A DNA stretch of 64,000 bases from Candidatus Zixiibacteriota bacterium (GCA_030668485.1 DAOUTW010000013.1:2902-66901), one strand, 5' to 3'; counted from the first letter of the stretch, positions 13,507 to 24,357 are shown. The notes: generated from the sequence alone by a model not told the origin. Program-made: numbers and translations.

Positions 13507-15180
13507 ATGAAAAGATTTTCGCTTTTGGTTTTTATCGTCGCGGTTTTCCTTACGATACCATTATTGGCGCGTCAAATCGATTCTGACATTATCCAGATCA
13601 AACTTAATCGAATCTATTTCGCATCGGGGAGCGAGAACGGAGTCCAGACCGGGGCATCGTTTAAGGTGGTTTGTTATGGCGATGAAGTTATTTCAGGGAC
13701 GATTGAGTATGCCGGTCCCGGCATTTCATTCAGCCGACCGTTGGCCGAACTTGACACTCTTGAGTTGGATGACGGATGCATCGCCAGACTGACTACATCC
13801 GGCATAGATTCCACCGCTTATGTTACTATCGGAACCGATATCCCGATTGAGTTTTTTGATCCCGAGCATGAGACTTTGTTTATCCGCCGGGCCGACACCG
13901 TAATTCCCAACCTGGTTGACTCGGCTCGTTTTTCAGGTAATTCGCTGATTCTTTATTTGCCACATGATATCAGATTTTCGGACGGGACGCCGTACAATGC
14001 TGAAGTGCTGGCATTCTACCTGCAGGATATCAAAGAGAAAAGCCGGTCATATCTGTCGCGCTACTTTTTTTCAAGACTGCTTCCGATCGATGCCGGGGGA
14101 ATTGAAATCATCGATAGTCTTACGGTCCACCTCAATTTTTATCATCCCTTCCCTCGGGCCGAGTATTTTTTGAGTCATCCCGATTTTTCCGTTTATAATC
14201 GATCGGGAGCCGGGACCGGTGTCTTAGCCAATGATTCCCTGACAAAAAGTAGTATCGGGAAGCGAGTATTCGTTCCTAACGGACATTATCGAGGGGAACC
14301 GCCGGCGTTTTCCAAGATGATAGTCCGATATTACGAGCAGCAGTACCGATTGAAATTTGCATATGAGAATCAGCAAATTGACGGTTTTATAGGTTTCGGA
14401 TTCGAGGCTGACCTGGCCGGATCGTATGAAGCGAGGGCCCTTTATCCGGAAATCGCGGTGATGATCGCGGGCATCGGCGGGAAACTTTTTTCGCAGGCTC
14501 GGTTTCCGACCTTTCTATACTATTGCTTTAACCCGTCGCTGTCACATTTGTACTTCCAGTATGGCGAAACGTCTGAGGTTAATCGTTGGGTTATGTCTTC
14601 GGCGACAGATCCGAATAGTAATCGTTTTTATCCTTTCGACTTTCTGGCGGGACGAAGACTTCATTCCTCAATCCGCTCGACTACCGATACCGCTCACCTG
14701 GTATACAGCCAGGTTTTGCTTTATGAAACAGCCCGTTACCTGGCCGATGTTGTCGCCCGTGAAGGAATGACAGCGCCGGTAAACAGGCAGGGATTCGGTG
14801 GAGAGTATGATATCCAACTGGCCTTTTTGCCAGCATCCGACAATATTATGCCGTTCGCTCTTTATGCCGCCGTCCTTGAATTCAACGACCAGAACGGAAT
14901 GCTGCCGGTAGATGAAAGATTCGATCGGCCGGGGTGGCAGGCTATGGCTTCCGGTTCGAGCCTCAGGGAGATTAAAAACCGCAATAATTTCTTTATCCGG
15001 GCCGAGGAAACGGTGGTACAGGATGGAGGTTTTTTTCCACTGTTTCGTCCCTATATTTATGCTGTGAGTTATGATAATGTTAAAGGATTGGATTTCGATT
15101 TTTACGGCTATCCGGATCTGGAAAAAATCGTGAAGTTTTCGGCCAGGTCTCAAGATGCCGGTGCGGAGGGCGGACCGTGA
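13507..15180 (+). CDS. Exported protein with family-5 solute-binding-protein-like region
   Basis: Signal peptide; LYLPHDIRFSDGTPYNAEVL motif typical of SBP_bac_5; stop overlaps the kinase start (GTGA). Confidence 0.55.
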   Translation: MKRFSLLVFIVAVFLTIPLLARQIDSDIIQIKLNRIYFASGSENGVQTGASFKVVCYGDEVISGTIEYAGPGISFSRPLAELDTLELDDGCIARLTTSGIDSTAYVTIGTDIPIEFFDPEHETLFIRRADTVIPNLVDSARFSGNSLILYLPHDIRFSDGTPYNAEVLAFYLQDIKEKSRSYLSRYFFSRLLPIDAGGIEIIDSLTVHLNFYHPFPRAEYFLSHPDFSVYNRSGAGTGVLANDSLTKSSIGKRVFVPNGHYRGEPPAFSKMIVRYYEQQYRLKFAYENQQIDGFIGFGFEADLAGSYEARALYPEIAVMIAGIGGKLFSQARFPTFLYYCFNPSLSHLYFQYGETSEVNRWVMSSATDPNSNRFYPFDFLAGRRLHSSIRSTTDTAHLVYSQVLLYETARYLADVVAREGMTAPVNRQGFGGEYDIQLAFLPASDNIMPFALYAAVLEFNDQNGMLPVDERFDRPGWQAMASGSSLREIKNRNNFFIRAEETVVQDGGFFPLFRPYIYAVSYDNVKGLDFDFYGYPDLEKIVKFSARSQDAGAEGGP

Positions 15181-16832
15181 CTTTCACCGGACGATTGCGT
15201 TTGACCCTGATACTGGCGGCGATATTTCCGACCGCTCTGATATCGATTATAGTCGTGATCGGTTTATCGCAACAAGTCAAGCGTATCGAAAACCGGGATG
15301 CGGAGGCGGCCTGTCTGAGATTTGCGGAATTGCTTGACAACACCTCCGCTCGCGCAAAGACAAATCTGCAATTTATTATTGACGGCCGTGAATTCCAGGT
15401 TATGGAATGGGGGCTGGACACCGACAAACCGCCTGATCCGAAATACCGGCTGCCCCTGTTATCGCTTGATTTTGTTGAATATCTGGATTCCGGCGGAATT
15501 GTCATGATATCGGCCGACCGACCGGGGCTGGTCGGGCATAAGATCGAGCTACCGCTGAGGAAAGAGCAAGTGTCTCGGAATGACCTGGTTTATGAGAACG
15601 ATCTGCACGGTTCGCATCCATCGCTGGCGATTATCATGCCGACCGAAAAAGGATATGTCAGAGGCGGTTTCTTCCTCGACGGTATATTCGGTAGTTTGGC
15701 GACGGCAGTCACCCGGTCTTCACTTGATTTCATAGATATCAGAGGAAAAGGCAGCGAGGCAGCGACATTCGAGTTGGCCGGCGAGGTCGGTGTGCCATAT
15801 CGCTCGGAGGAGAAGCTTTGCGCCGTGTTGACTTATTACCCCTGGAGTGAGTTTTACCCGATAGCACGGTTTCTGCCATATGAGCAGCAATCGTTGTTTG
15901 CTGACTTTTTTACGGCGGTAGCGGTGGTGACGATATTTTCGCTGGCTCTGATTATCCCGATCGGGCTCTATTTTTCGGCGCGGACGCGGCGGGAATTCGA
16001 GACCCTGAGCGGCGGCGCTGTGCGGGTCGCATCCGGTGATTTTTCACGCCCGGTGGTCATTACGAGCGAGGGAGAGTTTTCCGACCTTGCCGAATCGTTC
16101 AATCGGATGATGAAGCAATTGACCGATTATCGGAAAAAGTTGATCGTGTCGCAAAAAGTTGCAGCCTGGCAGACTATCGGCCGCAAGATCGCTCATGAGG
16201 TCAAAAATCCTCTTACACCGATCAGCATCGCCGTCGATGATCTCCGGAAAAGCTATCACGATTACCCGGATGAATATGAGAATATTCTGAATGACTGTGC
16301 GGCCACAATCAAAGGCGAGGTTGCTCGTCTTAAAAAACTAATCGATCAATTTTCGACTTTCGCTAAAATGCCTCCCCCCGAAATAACGGCGATCCCTGCT
16401 TCCGCTTTCATTCAGGATATTTCGGTGCTGTATAAGGAGGAGGTATCCGAGGGCCGACTGACCATCGAGAATAATCTCGATGATGCCTCTCTGAGGCTGG
16501 ATACTGAGCAGATGCGGCAGGTAATTATCAATCTGATTAAGAACAGTCTGGAGGCCGAATGCGAGCAATGCATTTTTCGGTTGGACAGATCCGACGATCG
16601 GATCAGATTGACGGTGGAGGACGATGGTCCCGGTTTGCCGGAAAAGATTTTGAATGAAGGACCGACTCCATATTATTCGACCAAAGAGAACGGCAGCGGA
16701 CTCGGTTTGATCATCTGCCAGCGAATCGTCTTTGACCACGGGGGCATGGTTAACATCGAAAACAAACCTGAAGGAGGGGCACGGGTGGTTATTACCCTGC
16801 CGGAAACAGATGACCAGAATATTAATCGTTGA
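15177..16832 (+). CDS. Membrane sensor histidine kinase with HAMP (NtrY-like)
   Basis: Two TM helices, HAMP, IAHEVKNPLTPI H-box, NLIKNS N-box, DDGPG and GSGLGL G-boxes. Confidence 0.9.
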   Translation: MTFTGRLRLTLILAAIFPTALISIIVVIGLSQQVKRIENRDAEAACLRFAELLDNTSARAKTNLQFIIDGREFQVMEWGLDTDKPPDPKYRLPLLSLDFVEYLDSGGIVMISADRPGLVGHKIELPLRKEQVSRNDLVYENDLHGSHPSLAIIMPTEKGYVRGGFFLDGIFGSLATAVTRSSLDFIDIRGKGSEAATFELAGEVGVPYRSEEKLCAVLTYYPWSEFYPIARFLPYEQQSLFADFFTAVAVVTIFSLALIIPIGLYFSARTRREFETLSGGAVRVASGDFSRPVVITSEGEFSDLAESFNRMMKQLTDYRKKLIVSQKVAAWQTIGRKIAHEVKNPLTPISIAVDDLRKSYHDYPDEYENILNDCAATIKGEVARLKKLIDQFSTFAKMPPPEITAIPASAFIQDISVLYKEEVSEGRLTIENNLDDASLRLDTEQMRQVIINLIKNSLEAECEQCIFRLDRSDDRIRLTVEDDGPGLPEKILNEGPTPYYSTKENGSGLGLIICQRIVFDHGGMVNIENKPEGGARVVITLPETDDQNINR

Positions 16833-18129
16833 CGATGAGCGGGAAATACGGAGCACTTTATCGGCGGCGCTCGGACGCCGGGGTTATAAGACCGATACCG
16901 CGATCAATATCGCGGCGGCGCAGGATAAGCCACTCGGCAAATACGACCTGGTACTTCTCGACGTGATGCTCCCCGATGGTAGCGGGCTGGATCTTCTACC
17001 GCATATCATGTCCGAGCCTGATCATCCTCCGGTGGTCATGATGTCGGGGGTGGCCGGGATTGAAACAGCGGTGGAATCGATTCACCGGGGAGCGGTGGAC
17101 TTTTTGGAAAAACCGTTGTCGCTCGACCGGGTGCTGGTCACTATAGAAAACGCCCTGAAGGCGGAAACGCTCAGAGCAGAAAACCTCTCTTTGTCGAAAA
17201 TGATTTATGGATCCTTCATTGGCGATTCGAATCATATTAAAAGAATAAAAAAGGAAATCGAGGCCACTGCCCCACGCTCGACGCGATTTCTGATTCTCGG
17301 AGAAAACGGCACCGGCAAGGAACTGGTGGCGCGCATGATTCATGAGCGAAGCCGTTTCGCCGAAGGGCGTTTTGTGCCGGTCAACTGCGCCGCCCTGCCG
17401 TCGGAGTTGATCGAATCGGAACTGTTCGGTCATATCAAGGGATCATTTACGGGCGCGGTAAGTGATAAAACCGGGCGATTTGCCGAGGCCGACCGGGGTA
17501 CTATCTTTCTCGATGAAATCGCCGATATGCAAGCAGAGGCTCAGGCGAAGATTTTGCGGGTTATCGAAGGTGGGGAATTACGCCCGGTAGGTTCGAGTGA
17601 AACAACACAGGTCGAATTGAATGTGATTGCCGCTACCAATCGTAATATCCTAAAACTGGTCGATGACGGTTCCTTCCGTCAGGACCTGTTTTACCGGCTC
17701 AATGTAGTGACTTTTAACCTCCCTCCCCTTCGGGAGCGGCCCGATGATATCCCTGCGCTCTACCAACATTTCCTCGAATTCTTCGCCCACCAAAGCGGAC
17801 GAGTTGCCGCAGTAGTGACGCCCGATGCGATGGAGTTGTTGACCCGCTATCATTATCCCGGAAATGTCCGGGAGTTGAAAAATATCGCGGAGCGTATTTC
17901 GATTTATGTCGATCATAAGGAGGCCTCGATAACCGATATCAGGCCGCTTCTGCCCCGTTTCGGCGACGAACCTGTTTTGGCCTTGAAAGAAGCAGTCGAC
18001 GAATTCGAAGCCGGTTATATCAGGAGGGTGATTGGCGCCTGCGGTGGTAACATGGCCGAGGCGTCCCGCAAACTCGGCTTGGAGCGTTCGCATCTTTATA
18101 AGAAAATAAAAAAACTGAACGGCGACTGA
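16810..18129 (+). CDS. sigma54-dependent response regulator (NtrX/NtrC-like)
   Basis: Receiver domain (ILIVDDE, LLDVMLP), GENGTGKEL, ESELFGH, FLDEIAD, C-terminal Fis HTH; true start ATG 16810. Confidence 0.92.
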   Translation: MTRILIVDDEREIRSTLSAALGRRGYKTDTAINIAAAQDKPLGKYDLVLLDVMLPDGSGLDLLPHIMSEPDHPPVVMMSGVAGIETAVESIHRGAVDFLEKPLSLDRVLVTIENALKAETLRAENLSLSKMIYGSFIGDSNHIKRIKKEIEATAPRSTRFLILGENGTGKELVARMIHERSRFAEGRFVPVNCAALPSELIESELFGHIKGSFTGAVSDKTGRFAEADRGTIFLDEIADMQAEAQAKILRVIEGGELRPVGSSETTQVELNVIAATNRNILKLVDDGSFRQDLFYRLNVVTFNLPPLRERPDDIPALYQHFLEFFAHQSGRVAAVVTPDAMELLTRYHYPGNVRELKNIAERISIYVDHKEASITDIRPLLPRFGDEPVLALKEAVDEFEAGYIRRVIGACGGNMAEASRKLGLERSHLYKKIKKLNGD

Positions 18130-18180
18130 TGAGTTTCGCCGAGACCGGAGATATTTACTCTCATATCATAATAATACTTG

Positions 18181-18209
18181 TTGCATAAAAAGGCGTCAAT
18201 GTCTATATT
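18181..18209 (+). promoter_or_regulatory. sigma70 promoter, exosortase locus unit 1
   Basis: TTGCAT-17 nt-TATATT; the same hexamer pair recurs at 23326-23354. Confidence 0.55.
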
Positions 18210-18307
18210 TGTTCCATAATACAATAGCCCGGGGGGATTGATCGGGCCATTTAATCGATTGTGTTACCATCTTTGAGTCTTCATCTATCATCTTATTTCC
18301 TCCCAAT

Positions 18308-18359
18308 ATCGTGATTGATCGACATCCTTGAGATTTACAACACGGTATCAATCATCGAT
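18308..18359 (+). promoter_or_regulatory. Leader motif copy 1: hairpin whose loop starts CGACATCCTTGA
   Basis: TTGATCGACATCCTTGA at 18315-18331; stem TGATTGAT 18312-18319 / ATCAATCA 18347-18354, extendable. Confidence 0.5.
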
Positions 18360-18462
18360 CTGCTCTTTCTCGGGGTGATATTTATTTTTGTACTCCGTTA
18401 AGATTTGGCGGTCGTGATATAGGCCTTGAGGTCTAAGCGGCTGCATTTCGAAAAGGTAGCTG

Positions 18463-19155
18463 ATGTCTCGTCGATATCACAAATCTCAAAGTGTTTCTGC
18501 AATTGATCGGGGTACTCATTCTATTCTTTTAATAATCCTGATGATTTCGAGCGGTTGGGGTATGGCTGCCGCATCCGGGACAACTTCTCTTTCATGGCTG
18601 GCGTGGATCGGTCTTATCCCGATATTTATTGCCATCAGGTCGTCTGTTCCCAGGGTGGCGTTTCTATACGGCGCTTTGTGGGGTGTCAGCCATTACTTCT
18701 TTTCGATGGCATCCGATGCCGCCACATTAATGGTAGCGATCTACTCGATCGGGCTGCTGACCACCGTTCCGGCGCTATACGCCTATCTCGGGGCGCGACT
18801 GACTCGCCGCTTTGGTTATCTGCCTCTGGTACTGGCCGTGGGTTGGATCTTAGTCGAGTTGGCCTTGCAACCGGTGGCGATGCAGAACGGTTTGCTGGCA
18901 AACTGCGTGAACAACGGCAGCCTTCTGAGCATTGTCGGCGGCGCTCTGGGTTATGTCTTTGTCGCCTTCTTTATAGTATATGTCAATGCGCAATTGATTT
19001 CGCTGGTCGGTAAAATCAATTTCATAGTTTCCCGCTTTTTTCTTTTGCCGATTATCGGAAAACAATGCGGGTTGATTGAAAATAAAAACCTGGCTTTACT
19101 TTCCGAATCACCTTTCAGTTATTCTCGTCCTCGTGCTCCTCCTCAAGTTATCTGA
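18463..19155 (+). CDS. Lnt N-terminal-domain-like membrane protein with C-terminal RAPP motif (putative arrest-peptide leader 1)
   Basis: WLAWIGLIP...AFLYGALWG...LAVGWILVEL...GYVFVAF..VN follows the Lnt membrane domain pattern; no nitrilase domain; ends SRPRAPPQVI. Confidence 0.75.
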   Translation: MSRRYHKSQSVSAIDRGTHSILLIILMISSGWGMAAASGTTSLSWLAWIGLIPIFIAIRSSVPRVAFLYGALWGVSHYFFSMASDAATLMVAIYSIGLLTTVPALYAYLGARLTRRFGYLPLVLAVGWILVELALQPVAMQNGLLANCVNNGSLLSIVGGALGYVFVAFFIVYVNAQLISLVGKINFIVSRFFLLPIIGKQCGLIENKNLALLSESPFSYSRPRAPPQVI

Positions 19156-19162
19156 TGCTCCT

Positions 19163-19181
19163 TGCCGCCATAACGGCGGCA
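19163..19181 (+). other. 7-bp GC hairpin just after leader-1 stop (no U-tract)
   Basis: TGCCGCC-ATAAC-GGCGGCA. Confidence 0.6.
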
Positions 19182-19252
19182 CAAACATCAAATAACGCAA
19201 GAATTATCAAATTATAACACCTCTGTTGTAATAACAGACGAGGAGGAATACT

Positions 19253-19678
19253 ATGTCTAAGAAAATGTTGTTTGTCGCGTTTATCACCTTGGGATTGATG
19301 GCCATGAATATTCCCGCTCTGGGTGCCAATGTTACAGGAAAAGTCATAGGGCGTGGCGAAGTAGGTATCCAAGGTGTGACTATTACGGTGGCCGGTACCG
19401 GGGCATGCGATGCGTATTCGACGACGACCAATTCCCTTGGCGAATTCATTATCGACTGCGACTGCGAGGCAGCAGGAAGTATAACCGCCAGCTTTTCGAT
19501 GGCGGGATACGCGCAGGCAGTGGCAACATACGATTGCGACATCCCTGAGAGTGATGTGATTATCATAATGCCGGATATCGGAGTTCCCTCAATGACCACT
19601 TATGGGGCCATTGTGCTGGTTTTACTTCTTGCCGCGACCGGTGTCTATATGTATCGTCGCCGCCGTGTGACGGCCTAA
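19253..19678 (+). CDS. IPTL-CTERM-type surface protein with carboxypeptidase-regulatory-like domain
   Basis: Signal peptide; VTGKV...GIQGVTITV...TTTNSLGEF; C-terminus VPSMTTYGAIVLVLLLAATGVYMYRRRR; SD AGGAGG. Confidence 0.85.
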   Translation: MSKKMLFVAFITLGLMAMNIPALGANVTGKVIGRGEVGIQGVTITVAGTGACDAYSTTTNSLGEFIIDCDCEAAGSITASFSMAGYAQAVATYDCDIPESDVIIIMPDIGVPSMTTYGAIVLVLLLAATGVYMYRRRRVTA

Positions 19679-19704
19679 GAGAAGTGTTTAACTGCAGTAT
19701 TGCG

Positions 19705-19731
19705 GGGCCGGAAGCAAGACTCTTCCGGCCC
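19705..19731 (+). terminator. Terminator ending unit 1
   Basis: GGGCCGGAAG/CTTCCGGCCC perfect 10-bp stem, weak U tail. Confidence 0.6.
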
Positions 19732-19876
19732 TGTTAATAGTAATAAAGTGCTTGTAAAAAATAGAATTGACTATATATTAGTTCTAAGGCAACCATATTA
19801 AATCAACCGGGCATAGATATTTAAGAATTTCTTTTTTTGGGTTTGCACGTCAAAAATTAAATCACATCACCCCACC

Positions 19877-19913
19877 GGTTGATCGACATCTTTGACAGAC
19901 TTTGTAATTAACC
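19877..19913 (+). promoter_or_regulatory. Leader motif copy 2: hairpin whose loop starts CGACATCTTTGA
   Basis: TTGATCGACATCTTTGA at 19879-19895 (16/17 identical to copy 1); stem GGTTGAT 19877-19883 / ATTAACC 19907-19913. Confidence 0.5.
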
Positions 19914-20039
19914 ACTATCCGAAAATTATCGGAGGGTGGTGGCTTAATTGTAGCGGAATCGCATTCCCCCAGTCGCAGACGAGTCGACTCCGGAATGCGA
20001 TATCTTGTGCTGTACGAATGATGAGATCAGGAAGGGTTC

Positions 20040-20729
20040 TTGTACGGGTTAAGGGAAAATTCAGACTATCGCTTGCCGGTTATCAATCGAATTGCTGAGA
20101 CAGTTCTGCTAGCCATACTTCTGATTGCCGGAGCATATTTCACAGCCGTTGTTACGGTTTCGCCGGCTCCTCCGTGGCTGGCCTGGTTCGGACTATTGCC
20201 TTTAATTCTTGCCATAAGGAATCTATCGCCGCGCTGGGCTTCAGCATCCGGGGCTTTGTGGGGATGCTGTCTATATCTGTTTTCGACGACAGTATCCGGC
20301 TCAGCGATATCAATGACGTTTTCCAATCTTCTTATCCTTGTTTTGATTCCAACCGCATATACCGGTTTAATGGGGTGGTACCGGCGTTCCTTTGGTTTCA
20401 GCCCGCTGGCGGTGGCGCTTGGCTGGGTGATTTTGGAACTGATCCTCAAGGCAACCGGCATCGGTGCCGGCATTCTATCGGCTGACCACGGATATGGTCC
20501 GTATTTTGATGTTGTCGCCAATTTCCTCGGCTATGGTTTTGTGGCCTTTTTAGTAGCTTATACAAACGCTGTTTTATTGTCATTCCCATGGCGCATCCGA
20601 TTTGATGTCGGATTGCTCCATATGACCAGAATTGTGGTGGGAGTCGAGCGTCCAACGGTTTTATTCGAACCCCACATACACTCGACATTTCACGCCCATC
20701 GGCGTCGACCGCGCGCACCTCCGGCATGA
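20040..20729 (+). CDS. Lnt N-terminal-domain-like membrane protein with C-terminal RAPP motif (putative arrest-peptide leader 2)
   Basis: Paralogue of 18463-19155 (WLAWFGLLP...GALWG...ALGWVILEL...GYGFVAF..TN); ends RRRPRAPPA; TTG start. Confidence 0.75.
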   Translation: MYGLRENSDYRLPVINRIAETVLLAILLIAGAYFTAVVTVSPAPPWLAWFGLLPLILAIRNLSPRWASASGALWGCCLYLFSTTVSGSAISMTFSNLLILVLIPTAYTGLMGWYRRSFGFSPLAVALGWVILELILKATGIGAGILSADHGYGPYFDVVANFLGYGFVAFLVAYTNAVLLSFPWRIRFDVGLLHMTRIVVGVERPTVLFEPHIHSTFHAHRRRPRAPPA

Positions 20730-20838
20730 TGACCGATCTGTCTCAATCGGTTTTATGAGAAGGAGTTTCCTTTAATCCTGAACGGGTCTTCACAGTCGAA
20801 AAAACCCGGCAGGATTGAACACTATAAAAGGAGAAAAT

Positions 20839-21909
20839 ATGCGTTACAAATCTTATCTAATGCTCCTGGCCGTTGCCGGCATGTTGGCGCTGCTTCTTGG
20901 TCAGACAGTAAGTGCCGAAAGCGATAAAATGATGCACTTTTACACCCTCAATGCGGCCGGAGAACATACTCTCACGGCGGTTTATGACGTCGATCTGGAT
21001 AAAGCCTTTACCGCTTATGCCGCCGACAAATCATCGGAATGGGGTACCGGGGTTTTGTATTTCAAGATTGGCGATGACAGAATGGAAAACATCGGGTCCA
21101 GCGAACATTTTATCGAGTTCCTGGATGCCAATTATGATAAAATGCCGGTTGATCGAGGTGATGCCTGCGATAATACTGTCACCGCGGTCTGGGTACTCAC
21201 TTGCCCATTCGATTGTACTCCAACCACTGACTGCGAGGAATGGGTCCATTATGTAGTGACAATCACCTGCCTGGACGATCCTCCATGTCCCCCCGAGGAG
21301 CCTTTATGCCTGCCCTTTGCCAATAGAATCTACGGATTTTCGACCGATCCCGTTCCCGCCTGTGTCTGTGTCGGCGGAGAGGGAGGAGTCTGTACTCTGG
21401 CTGATGGGGCGGAGGTAGACCTATTCTGGTCAGACGGTCCGGTATGTGAGTGCGCCGAGACGGCATCCGGAGCCTGCATGGTCGGTGAAGAGTGCTTTGC
21501 CGTGACAGGAGATTCATGTGCAATCCTGGGCGGCACCTTCTCGGGTGCAGGCACCGTTTGCGGGGCGGCACAGAGCGGAGATCATAATATCCCGACTCTT
21601 TCCGAGTGGGGTTTGATCATATTCTCGCTGCTGATTCTTTCGCTGGTGACTGTTGTGGTTACCCGTCGCCGGACGGCGACCTCCGCCGTCGGAGCCGGTG
21701 GTTCGATCACAATCAGCGGACCGACATTTGTCCCGGCTCGCTTTATGAAAGCGCTGGTGGTAACCCTAAGCCTGGCTGTCGTAGTCCTGGTAACGGCAAC
21801 CATCATGTCGGGCAGTATTCCCCTGCGTGATATTATCGGAACAATATTAAGCGCCGGTATCGTGGCTTATATCGTTCATCTTTGGATTGTACCCAAAGAG
21901 ACGGAATAG
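20839..21909 (+). CDS. Cys-rich exported protein with IPTL-CTERM motif followed by a two-helix membrane extension
   Basis: Signal peptide; GACMVGEEC...CAILGGTFSGAGTVC; IPTLSEWGLIIFSLLILSLVTVVVTRRR followed by about 78 more residues; SD AGGAG before ATG 20839. Confidence 0.85.
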   Translation: MRYKSYLMLLAVAGMLALLLGQTVSAESDKMMHFYTLNAAGEHTLTAVYDVDLDKAFTAYAADKSSEWGTGVLYFKIGDDRMENIGSSEHFIEFLDANYDKMPVDRGDACDNTVTAVWVLTCPFDCTPTTDCEEWVHYVVTITCLDDPPCPPEEPLCLPFANRIYGFSTDPVPACVCVGGEGGVCTLADGAEVDLFWSDGPVCECAETASGACMVGEECFAVTGDSCAILGGTFSGAGTVCGAAQSGDHNIPTLSEWGLIIFSLLILSLVTVVVTRRRTATSAVGAGGSITISGPTFVPARFMKALVVTLSLAVVVLVTATIMSGSIPLRDIIGTILSAGIVAYIVHLWIVPKETE

Positions 21910-21943: not shown

Positions 21944-21976
21944 AATCCGGGCGGCCCAGTTGCCGCCCGGATTTTT
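21944..21976 (+). terminator. Terminator ending unit 2
   Basis: AATCCGGGCGGC/GCCGCCCGGATT 12-bp stem plus T-run. Confidence 0.75.
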
Positions 21977-22086
21977 GATACCGGTAAATTATATTGCCTG
22001 ATACACAGTAGTCTTTTCTTGACAGAGCGGGGACATAAAGATTACATTGGCGATGAGAGGCAGTTCGGGCAGTGCAGGGGAATCGA

Positions 22087-22656
22087 ATGAAAAAAAAGAA
22101 ATCACAACCGGTACAACGCAAACGGGGTTTGAAGTTCCGGCAGGTTATTGATGCCAATTGGCCCCTGTTCAAAATATATCTTCTGTTTGGTCTGGTGCTG
22201 CTGGTCCTGTTCACGATTATCATGGTCAAGCCGGTGTATTATGGGATCGTGATGCCGTTCAATAAGTTTCTGGCTCACTCCTCAGCTTCGGTGATCATAC
22301 TGCTTGGAGGCGATGATATTATCTGCTCCGGGACATCGGTTTCGACATCCGGATTCGCAATTGATATCGCCGAGGGATGCAACGGCATCTATGCTCTTTC
22401 GATTGTGATCGCCGGTATTATAGCCTTTCCCGCACCCTGGCGACCCAAATCGGTCGGATTGCTCCTGTCGATCATCCTGATCATGATCCTCAATTATATC
22501 CGTATTCTGACGTTGTGGTATGTGGGCAAGGCCGGTTCGTTTTTATTCGATGTCATGCATCTGTATGTTTGGGAATTTGTCATTATTGTGTTGGGGGCGG
22601 GGTTTTGGTATTTCTGGTATGAAAAATTTGTCAAGGCCCGCGCGGATTCTAACTAG
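22087..22656 (+). CDS. xrtH: Exosortase H (IPTL-CTERM-specific transpeptidase)
   Basis: Catalytic triad pattern IAEGCNG (Cys), NYIRI (Arg), MHLYVW (His) in a polytopic membrane protein next to IPTL-CTERM genes. Confidence 0.88.
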   Translation: MKKKKSQPVQRKRGLKFRQVIDANWPLFKIYLLFGLVLLVLFTIIMVKPVYYGIVMPFNKFLAHSSASVIILLGGDDIICSGTSVSTSGFAIDIAEGCNGIYALSIVIAGIIAFPAPWRPKSVGLLLSIILIMILNYIRILTLWYVGKAGSFLFDVMHLYVWEFVIIVLGAGFWYFWYEKFVKARADSN

Positions 22657-23239
22657 CGCGGCGCTATTTATCGTCTGTTATATTCCGGTCAGTCTGTTAT
22701 GGTCGCAGGCTTTGCCGTCCTACAGTCGCATAATAGCGGCTGTCTCCGAGACATTTGTCAATATAATCGAGTTTTCCGATACAACATACAGAATCTCGGT
22801 CGTAAATAATGATTTTCAGGTTATCGCGCGCCTATCGGTCGACGACAAGCGCGGGCGCAGCAAGATGTATAAACTTGACGGCACGAGAAAGGCCGATCTG
22901 GTCTCGTATAATCTAAGCCTCTGGTTTTGTCTGTTTGTGGCAACCTTTTACTGGGTCAACCCATCGGCCCGGTGGAAATATTTAGTCATCGCGCCGGTAA
23001 TTATAATCATTTGGCATGTCTGTGATCTTACCATATTTTCGAAAAATACACGCTGGATACTGACCAAAAGCCTGCATGAGCAGAACGCTTCAATGATCGA
23101 ATACAGTTACAGTTGGAACTGGTTCTGGTTCTGGGCCAAGGAACTCAACCGCCGTATCATCGATCCATTCCTACCGCTGTTGCTGTGGATAATCTTTTGT
23201 GCGCGGTCATTCTTTGGACATCGGGCTACGAATAGTTAG
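22619..23239 (+). CDS. Exosortase-associated membrane protein
   Basis: Overlaps the xrtH 3' end by 38 nt; several TM helices, YNLSLWFCLFVAT and IIWHVCDL segments. Confidence 0.6.
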   Translation: MKNLSRPARILTSAALFIVCYIPVSLLWSQALPSYSRIIAAVSETFVNIIEFSDTTYRISVVNNDFQVIARLSVDDKRGRSKMYKLDGTRKADLVSYNLSLWFCLFVATFYWVNPSARWKYLVIAPVIIIIWHVCDLTIFSKNTRWILTKSLHEQNASMIEYSYSWNWFWFWAKELNRRIIDPFLPLLLWIIFCARSFFGHRATNS

Positions 23240-23354: not shown

Positions 23355-23718
23355 GCAAGCATTAGAGGGCATCATCATGGGCTATCATCTATTTTTGGAG
23401 TTGTTGATCGGTAATTAATGCCATCTATCGATCATTAGTTGTGGCTTTTCTGTTTGCCCTCTACTGTGGTATCCCTCACATCTCCACCTCATCCGCCATG
23501 CAGGGAATAATTGCTATGCGCGCATAGGGCATTGATCCACCCTATTATGAAAGGAGGAAACTTATCGAATACTGTGGTATGAAAGCTATTTCAATAACTT
23601 ATAGGAATAATTCTGTCACCGATATCGGCGGATGTAAAGTTGACAAAGCTGGCAGACGGGACGTCCGCAAGCCACAAAGTTGATACTAAACAACAGATCA
23701 CTGTGTAAGGAGATACAA

Positions 23719-24357
23719 ATGTTACGATTGAGATACGCATTTATCGGGATTATATTTATACTTCTAACACTTTTCAGCTTTTCCGGAGTTTTTGGAGCCG
23801 CACTCGTCGCAGAAATCAATAACTCCACCAACTGGGAAATGCACGTTCACAAGAAGATTTGGAAAAACGCCAATGGTGATGTTGTTAAAACCGTCAATAT
23901 ATCGCCTCATTGGGTTGTGGCTGCAAAGAGTACTGGCTCCAAGGGATTTACCATCCCTGAGGGCGCAAAGGACAACGAGTTCAAGTATTACTACAAAACC
24001 ACAGTCGATACCATTCATTGCAGCGTCTCAATGTATAATGTTGATGTGTGCTCATCGCCGATTGGTATGTACTATGACGCCGGCGGTGATACGCTCTATA
24101 CGGGGTACGATAGCGATGGACCCGAATCGCCCTTTTTCTGCACTTCGGAATTTGTTTATGATTCTCTTTCAGGCCAAATAAGTTGTTCCAATCCACCTGG
24201 TTCATACACCCCGGTTTTGGGCGGAACATTGAGAGAATGCATAAAGGTCCCCAGTATGAGTATGATCGGCCTCATAATCCTTGCGGTTCTTATGGTTATA
24301 TTGGGGGTATTTGTTATATATCGCAGGAAAAACGTCTTTGCAGGAGAATATTCGTAG
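23719..24357 (+). CDS. Third IPTL-CTERM-type surface protein
   Basis: Signal peptide; C-terminus VPSMSMIGLIILAVLMVILGVFVIYRRK; SD AAGGAG before ATG 23719. Confidence 0.8.
   Translation: MLRLRYAFIGIIFILLTLFSFSGVFGAALVAEINNSTNWEMHVHKKIWKNANGDVVKTVNISPHWVVAAKSTGSKGFTIPEGAKDNEFKYYYKTTVDTIHCSVSMYNVDVCSSPIGMYYDAGGDTLYTGYDSDGPESPFFCTSEFVYDSLSGQISCSNPPGSYTPVLGGTLRECIKVPSMSMIGLIILAVLMVILGVFVIYRRKNVFAGEYS

Follow-up and report, generated by a model that had tools for sequence, protein, structure and literature searches.

Lnt-like membrane proteins ending in RAPP as candidate translation-arrest leaders of exosortase H cargo genes

Introduction

Why would the gene for a sorted surface protein be preceded by the gene for a short, Lnt-like membrane protein that ends in Arg-Ala-Pro-Pro (RAPP)? 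This question is raised by a 64,000-nt stretch of DNA from Candidatus Zixiibacteriota bacterium (GCA_030668485.1, DAOUTW010000013.1:2902-66901), which is referred to here as the window. The organism belongs to the Zixibacteria, its AtpD being 90% identical to the AtpD of Zixibacteria MAGs. Between a histidine kinase/sigma-54 response-regulator gene pair (15177-18129) and the gene for exosortase H (XrtH), the window holds two tandem units, each made up of a leader gene (open reading frames ORF-A and ORF-B, encoding leaders A and B) and a gene for a presumed XrtH substrate, which we call the cargo (Table 1). We think it fairly probable that the leaders are cis-acting RAPP translation-arrest leaders standing ahead of exosortase H cargo genes. 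This reading rests on an invariant motif core with a semi-conserved, tunnel-length stretch ahead of it and a variable tail past it, on predicted disorder, and on a co-directional gene downstream.

Exosortase systems are widespread, and their regulation and targets are almost entirely unstudied; hundreds of predicted arrest leaders tied one-to-one to XrtH cargo offer a testable handle on the timing and making of surface proteins. RAPP and RGPP are the most robust arrest cores, refractory to EF-P, and also the tetrapeptides that bacterial proteomes avoid most; the ribosome stalls with the motif's third and fourth codons in the P and A sites (PMC12992588). In Streptomyces lividans all seven C-terminal RAPP/RGPP proteins that were tested arrest translation, four of them with four transmembrane (TM) segments (PMC12992588), while CruR is known to control its downstream gene via RAPP (PMC9426467).

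Results

A C-terminal RAPP motif at a fixed distance from the membrane domain

The two leaders are paralogues (33% identity, BLASTP E 4e-36), and both end in R-P-R-A-P-P just ahead of the stop codon, as the original prediction had it: ORF-A closes with ...SRPRAPPQVI, three residues past the motif, and ORF-B with ...RRRPRAPPA, one residue past it. That prediction had proposed a family profile search and a tally of downstream genes as a check, and both were run. A profile hidden Markov model (HMM) search of 1.84 billion representative sequences, with clustering at 50% identity, returned a family of 803 clusters at E≤0.001, with 567 remaining at the stricter E≤1e-10. Among 144 new top HMM matches, R[AG]PP lies within the last 45 residues in 134 (114 RAPP, 20 RGPP); a further four carry it at the usual position in run-on ORFs, bringing the count to 138/144, and three carry RPPP or RSPP. 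A word-indexed search gave 66 homologues, 64 of them with PR[AG]PP 1-27 residues from the end, and R[AG]PP is present in 41 of the 42 leaders taken from loci in GTDB genomes (mostly Phycisphaerae, one Acidobacteriota). Substitution of RPPP or RSPP for RAPP/RGPP at the same position was seen in L012 (Pirellulales), P0197, P0233 and P0258.

Within the motif, an alignment of 63 members shows R224, P226 and P227 to be invariant and P223 nearly so, with position 225 occupied only by Ala or Gly (55 to 8). The distance from the membrane domain is equally strict. The original prediction had counted exactly 48 residues between the Asn of TM6 and the Arg of the motif in both ORFs, and this is correct (N175/R224 in ORF-A, N176/R225 in ORF-B). 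Across the 63 aligned members, the count from the Ala adjacent to that Asn is 47 in 59 and 48 in four, and for 160 sequences whose TM6 signature could be recognised, the distance from G163 to the Arg is 61 in 136, 62 in 19, 60 in three and 63 in two. The TM6-to-Arg spacing is thus constant within 1-2 residues in 160/160, despite poor conservation of residues 184-204. The roughly 20 residues immediately ahead of the motif are semi-conserved, a length that fits the ribosome exit tunnel, and the tail past the motif is anywhere from 0 to 39 residues long across the family.

RAPP is otherwise scarce in this genome. Seven occurrences are found in ORFs of at least 200 aa, four of them in the leaders; with the leaders removed, the counts are 3 for RAPP (11 expected) and 2 for RGPP (12 expected), while the control tetrapeptides are near expectation (AAPP 21 vs 16; AGPP 13 vs 17). 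The motif pattern of the leaders is far beyond chance. As a separate observation, two other ORFs of the genome, C46:27921-29039 (372 aa) and C130:25274-25984 (236 aa), have RGPP or RAPP 17 and 9 residues from the C-terminus, and no TM segments were detected in either; they may be spurious frames or additional arrest candidates.

The leader is a six-helix domain related to Lnt

Sequence similarity between the leaders and Lnt is weak at the level of single proteins and clearer at the level of the family. The Pfam model LNT_N (PF20154) matches ORF-A at E 3.8e-5 and 24.4 bits, under its gathering score of 27.1, and ORF-B alone gives no match to it; among family members, 51/63 match at E≤0.01, the best at 8e-11. 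An AlphaFold2 model built on the family alignment (predicted local distance difference test score, pLDDT, 76.7) has six TM helices and a disordered tail over residues 194-230, where the pLDDT is about 50. When this model was compared with the PDB by Foldseek, the 18 best matches were all Lnt, with a probability of 0.91-0.99 for 16 and 0.75 for two, E of only 0.16-0.8 and TM-scores of 0.31-0.43. A sequence search of PDB chains with the family profile gave no match, so that among PDB structures Lnt was found by fold comparison alone. The genome also has its own full-length Lnt (C57:69998-71539, 297 bits), the only TIGR00546 match above cut-off in the genome. The alignment of the leader with it covers the TM5-TM6 region and pairs both the W-x-x-x-E motif and the V-N motif of TM6; the residues common to Lnt in the six-TM domain are the W128/E132 motif, the TM6 VN motif and Gly/Pro positions.

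From these comparisons the leader appears as a domain homologous to Lnt TM1-6 plus a tail, with a predicted N-in/C-in topology, both termini cytoplasmic, that the charge distribution fits. Lnt (PDB 5N6L, 6NWR, 8B0K), with the same motifs in its TM1-6 membrane domain, runs on into TM7 and the nitrilase domain where the leaders end, about 48 residues past TM6. The leaders have neither TM7 nor the periplasmic nitrilase domain, the Glu-Lys-Cys triad or TM8, and are therefore not acyltransferases. No CN_hydrolase or TIGR00546 match and no nitrilase remnant was found in them, so the description of these ORFs as the Lnt N-terminal membrane domain without its catalytic part stands. A WLxW-hydrophobic-R stretch in the leader was considered as mimicry of the IPTL signal and rejected; by eye, it matches the conserved TM2 region of Lnt.

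The gene downstream encodes an exosortase H cargo

Cargo B scores 28.3 bits with the IPTL-CTERM model (TIGR04174, cut-off 20.5). Its signal is internal, at residues 259-286 of the 364-aa ORF; about 78 more residues, which include two further hydrophobic helices, come after it. The protein also shows weak similarity to 'midcut-by-XrtH' (NF033207, E 5.6e-4, under cut-off). The tail of cargo A reads GVPSMTTYG, then a TM helix, then RRRR, and matches weakly or by eye, under the IPTL-CTERM cut-off; in its orthologue on a metagenome contig, L057, the same stretch reads GVPSMTEWG. The original prediction had described each unit as a membrane ORF, an IPTL-CTERM gene and a terminator-like hairpin. The order of membrane ORF, signal-peptide gene and hairpin holds for both units, whereas cargo A is under the cut-off for that family and a U-run follows the second hairpin only.

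The pairing of leader and cargo recurs beyond the window. This genome holds four leader-cargo pairs, two in the window and two elsewhere (C78 14864-14157 -> 14039-13125 and C48 22761-22099 -> 21955-21101). In all four the cargo gene is co-directional, begins 86-144 nt downstream, and has a Shine-Dalgarno (SD) sequence, an ATG, a signal peptide and an IPTL-CTERM-like tail; terminator-like hairpins are found 3' of the cargo only. The same layout is present in 10/10 loci from genomes of the window's phylum, as well as in L001, L002 and L004, and a signal peptide with an IPTL-type tail is encoded by 30 of the 31 complete downstream ORFs in 42 Planctomycetota and Acidobacteriota loci. Overall, about 49 of 50 complete loci in Zixibacteria, Planctomycetota and Acidobacteriota have a cargo partner, and the cargo proteins range from about 140 to more than 1200 aa with unrelated domains.

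Leader genes are also confined to genomes that have the sorting enzyme. Of 201 genomes of the window's phylum 83 have XrtH, compared with 37/37 of those that carry a leader; so do 5/5 leader carriers outside this set, making 42/42 of the leader-bearing genomes tested. In at least 17 of the 37 leader-positive phylum genomes, and in 9/42 Planctomycetota loci, XrtH is found no more than about 3 kb from a leader, usually downstream of it and on the same strand. The window genome itself has three XrtH paralogues above the TIGR04177 cut-off, the one in the window and those at C128:8697-9158 and C41:7454-7834.

Predicted RNA coupling between leader and cargo

In unit 1 the predicted fold (z -4.3) pairs the Ala-Pro-Pro-Gln codons of the leader, GCUCCUCCUC, with the SD of cargo A, GAGGAGG. 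Nowhere else in the last 360 nt of the ORF is there an SD complement as strong as this anti-SD/SD duplex (-18.1 kcal/mol). The predicted arrangement in unit 2 is different: a decoy GGAG is the partner of the CCUCC in the RAPP codons, and UUUCCUUU that of the true SD (AAAGGAG). The SD complement of the RAPP window stands at percentile 0.18 there, which is not exceptional, and on this folding model a relay switch may be possible. In 10 of 55 leader-cargo pairs (~18%), where about 3 would be expected, the RAPP window ranks among the top 5% of SD complements. The first Pro codon is CCU in 16/40 leaders against a background of 13-17%, and in 4/4 leaders of the window genome.

Discussion

A proposed mechanism

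The strict spacing suggests how a leader might work. By analogy with ApdA, ApdP and CruR, the stalled ribosome would have the first Pro of RAPP (Pro226 in leader A, codon 19138-19140; Pro227 in leader B) in the P site and the second in the A site. Force-profile work shows that a TM helix goes on pulling on the growing chain until about 45 residues separate its C-terminal end from the peptidyl-transferase centre (PTC) (PMC7886326). When Pro226 occupies the P site, TM6, which ends at about residue 183, is 43-44 residues away from the PTC. The stall would then coincide with the end of membrane integration of TM6, and with the end of its pulling on the nascent chain. Because this distance is the point at which a TM helix completes integration, the length of the stall may report insertion or packing of the six-helix domain. 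The stalled ribosome would act in cis on the cargo gene of the same mRNA, and since arrest acts in cis on its own mRNA, one leader per regulated cargo gene would be expected. In unit 1, it is predicted to cover the Ala-Pro-Pro-Gln codons and free the cargo SD, turning cargo translation on.

We would go further only tentatively. It is possible, if doubtful, that the six-helix domain is a co-translational sensor for the exosortase pathway, with release of the stall depending on XrtH, on its lipid or acceptor, or on the load of unprocessed cargo. If so, the making of each such surface protein would keep pace with sorting capacity, and this would be the first case of arrest control over a sorting substrate rather than the machinery. 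The original prediction, of an arrest leader gating each exosortase H substrate gene, is borne out in part, by the motif, the spacing, the partner gene and the comparison of genomes with and without XrtH; what we infer is that ribosomes stall, that force frees them, and in which direction and how the cargo gene is controlled.

Evidence against arrest control of cargo

Several results weigh against the arrest-leader reading, some of them concerning the RNA. Across the 55 leader-cargo pairs the median percentile of the RAPP window is 0.41, and there is no family-wide SD complementarity. Modelling of the stall in 46 pairs, by imposing a 31-nt stalled-ribosome footprint as a constraint, gave a mean probability of 0.41 that the SD is unpaired, against 0.39 for free RNA and 0.43 for a mock footprint. 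We therefore reject SecM-like unmasking of the SD as a family-wide mechanism, since the footprint does not raise SD accessibility, and retain it for unit 1. The closest orthologue, L057, conserves the sequences that pair in unit 1, but its predicted fold differs: it does not join the RAPP codons to the SD, and it is no better than shuffles. Nor is a CruR-like Rho site supported. The intergenic regions have G>C in 44/52 pairs (L001-L057 plus the window's own genome; Wilcoxon p 4e-5) and a G+C content of 0.51, compared with 0.59-0.60 in the flanking genes; this G>C composition is unlike that of Rho loading sites, and the CruR mechanism is therefore not evident.

The remaining difficulties concern the protein and its place in the genome. 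RAPP arrest can be species-specific, and is weaker in an E. coli system (PMC12992588). A purely regulatory leader would need no conserved six-TM domain with Lnt-type residues, which hints at a function at the level of the protein. The feedback logic of the classical monitoring substrates is not directly applicable, given that the downstream gene is cargo and not machinery. In this genome, moreover, a leader stands before only 4 of about 12 IPTL-like cargo genes, leaving about eight without one.

Alternative explanations

The hint of a protein-level function could be taken at face value. The leader would then be a working membrane protein, such as a cargo-specific holder or adaptor that presents the IPTL-CTERM helix to XrtH, and the RAPP pause would tether the two-gene mRNA at the membrane beside the leader without setting the amount of cargo; with the mRNA held there by the pause, cargo would be made and handed over on the spot. 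Such a role would account for the good conservation of the six-TM domain with its Lnt-common residues, and is in keeping with the one-to-one pairing of leader and cargo, with the restriction of the family to XrtH genomes and with the failure to find a general RNA switch. We nevertheless consider it unlikely. Nothing points to an interaction between leader and cargo, a protein acting in trans would need no copy per cargo gene, and 8 of about 12 cargo genes in the genome do without a leader. Furthermore, a strict spacing combined with a variable tail fits the geometry of the ribosome better than it fits a protein interface.

Alternatively, the exosortase pathway might have in the leader a genuine monitoring substrate, whose arrest would be released by XrtH activity or by the state of XrtH's lipid/acceptor substrate and would control an operon made up of cargo and xrtH. 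The frequent proximity of XrtH described above speaks for this, as does the position of xrtH after unit 2 in the window. However, a strong terminator separates cargo B from xrtH, most leaders do not adjoin xrtH (including three of the four in this genome) and the leader has no IPTL-like signal, so that we regard this as quite improbable. The original prediction had likewise called the leaders monitoring substrates; that name does not suit them if it means that the downstream gene encodes machinery acting on the leader, for the next gene is IPTL-CTERM cargo and XrtH is only sometimes the second. Lastly, the ORFs might be decayed or truncated copies of Lnt in which RAPP and its spacing are functionless, through chance or as a leftover of the lineage. 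The weak similarity to LNT_N, with ORF-A under the Pfam cut-off, and the presence of a full-length Lnt elsewhere in the genome could be read in this way. Decay is as good as excluded by the conservation data, which contradict it: across three phyla, clusters numbering in the hundreds have diverged yet retained the frame, motif, spacing and partner gene, there is no remnant of the nitrilase domain, and RAPP is otherwise avoided in the genome.

Relation to known arrest systems

Having weighed these alternatives, we return to the reading of the leaders as cis-acting arrest leaders and compare them with systems already described. The closest known are the proteins of Fujiwara et al. 2025 (EMBO J, PMC12992588), for example the four-TM SLIV_33595/33605, SLIV_18480 and SLIV_27375 of Streptomyces lividans. 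Like the leaders, they are membrane proteins smaller than 300 aa that have R-[A/G]-P-P within a few residues of the C-terminus, a conserved TM region, about 20 semi-conserved residues before the motif and a co-directional downstream gene. The source data of that study (PMC12992588) include an IPTL-CTERM downstream class (12 RAPP vs 5 AAPP, 9.4-fold, adjusted p 6.8e-4; 11 TM upstream ORFs) and a 239-aa member of the leader family, NOX57704.1; its text mentions neither exosortase nor Lnt. Our literature search found no paper linking exosortase with translation arrest, or Lnt with RAPP motifs. The novelty claimed in the original prediction must accordingly be narrowed: the kind, the downstream class and one member of the family are already published (Fujiwara et al. 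2025, PMC12992588), while the Lnt homology and the exosortase link are not in that text, and within this kind the leader family itself is undescribed.

Unlike the published examples, the leader family has six TM segments derived from a known enzyme (Lnt TM1-6), occurs in several copies per genome, and has as its partner an exosortase H substrate, being found only in XrtH genomes of Zixibacteria, Planctomycetota and Acidobacteriota. What sets it apart is this enzyme-derived putative sensor domain, the strict spacer, the presence of several copies in one genome and a partner that is exclusively exosortase H cargo. If its function is as we propose, no sensor domain joined to a RAPP motif to date is larger or better defined than the six-helix domain, and the membrane domain of an enzyme would have been reused as a regulatory module. 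The strict spacer, for its part, offers a natural test of a ribosome reading out completed membrane integration.

CruR of Bordetella pertussis (DUF2946; Roy et al. 2022, PMC9426467) resembles the leaders in its C-terminal RAPP, in arrest in cis on the next gene and in a nascent chain that senses a condition. It differs in being a small secreted copper sensor with a CXXC motif that blocks Rho-dependent termination; the intergenic regions of the leaders are G-rich, not C-rich, and no ligand motif is evident in the leader proteins. ApdA and ApdP (Sakiyama 2021; Morici 2024), SecM, MifM and VemP show arrest of the RAPP/RAGP type with Pro in the A site, arrest that is sensitive to the pulling force of export or insertion, and a stalled ribosome that opens an RNA structure hiding an SD, the same being predicted for unit 1. 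These proteins have one signal peptide or one TM helix, whereas the leader family has a six-helix domain, and their downstream genes encode Sec/YidC machinery by which they are in turn acted on, in a feedback arrangement, whereas the leaders precede cargo.

Organisation of the locus

Each unit is best explained as a small operon, with a putative promoter, leader gene, intergenic region of about 100 nt, cargo gene and candidate terminator. The features on which this description is based are listed in Table 1.

Table 1. Positions of the two leader-cargo units and their associated features in the window (counted from its first nucleotide; MFE, minimum free energy).
Feature	Position	Strand	Remark
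17-nt motif TTGATCGACATCCTTGA, upstream of unit 1	18315..18331	+	overlaps promoter-like -35 hexamer
Promoter-like element of unit 1: TTGAGA, 16-nt spacer, AATCAT	18328-18355	+	
Leader A (ORF-A), 230-aa six-TM LNT_N-like protein with predicted C-terminal arrest tail	18463..19155	+	
Leader A R224-A-P226-P227 codons, CGT GCT CCT CCT	19132..19143	+	from sequence
Unit 1 intergenic region, 97 nt	19156..19252	+	MFE -44.4 kcal/mol, z -4.3
Stable hairpin in unit 1 intergenic region	19163-19181	+	-18 kcal/mol, z -5.7
SD of cargo A (unit 1), GAGGAGG	19240-19246	+	predicted pairing with Ala-Pro-Pro-Gln codons (GCUCCUCCUC)
Cargo A, 141 aa: signal peptide, CarboxypepD_reg-like domain, IPTL-CTERM-like sorting tail	19253..19678	+	
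Terminator-like hairpin 3' of cargo A, without U-run	19698..19739	+	-27.1 kcal/mol, z -4.3
Second copy of 17-nt motif (TTGATCGACATCTTTGA), includes TTGACA, upstream of unit 2	19879..19895	+	
Leader B (ORF-B), 229 aa, TTG start, paralogue of leader A	20040..20729	+	
Leader B RAPP codons, CGC GCA CCT CCG	20712-20723	+	
Unit 2 intergenic region, ~109 nt	20730..20838	+	fold z -2.5
Cargo B, 356 aa from ATG 20839 (ORF opens at TTG 20815): signal peptide, IPTL-CTERM signal	20839..21909	+	
Intrinsic-terminator-like hairpin UCCGGGCGGC...GCCGCCCGGA, then UUUUU	21945..21977	+	-27.8 kcal/mol, z -3.6
Exosortase H (XrtH), presumed sorting enzyme for the cargo	22072..22656	+	TIGR04177 101.1 bits vs cut-off 86

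The 17-nt motif TTGATCGACATC[C/T]TTGA has exact matches in the 4.5-Mb genome only at the two sites in Table 1, about 130-150 nt before each leader start in the window. At the other two leader loci of the genome, C78 and C48, plain TTGACA promoters are found in its place. A sigma-54 promoter was looked for ahead of the units because a gene for a sigma-54 activator lies upstream; neither 18130-18460 nor 19700-20040 contains one, and over the window as a whole they are fewer than chance would give. No known RNA family in Rfam matched the untranslated or intergenic regions. L057 1-5630 and window 15177-19678 have the same gene order, from histidine kinase through sigma-54 response regulator and leader A to CarboxypepD_reg cargo, and the leader of L057 is 67% identical to leader A.

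Two further genes of the cluster lie beyond unit 2. A third IPTL-like cargo gene, at 23680-24357, has a tail reading KVPSMSMIG, TM helix, RRK, and is without a RAPP leader. The other, at 22520-23239, overlaps the 3' end of xrtH and encodes a 239-aa multi-pass membrane protein that matches no Pfam or NCBIfam family; it is present in one copy in the genome and may be an XrtH accessory protein.

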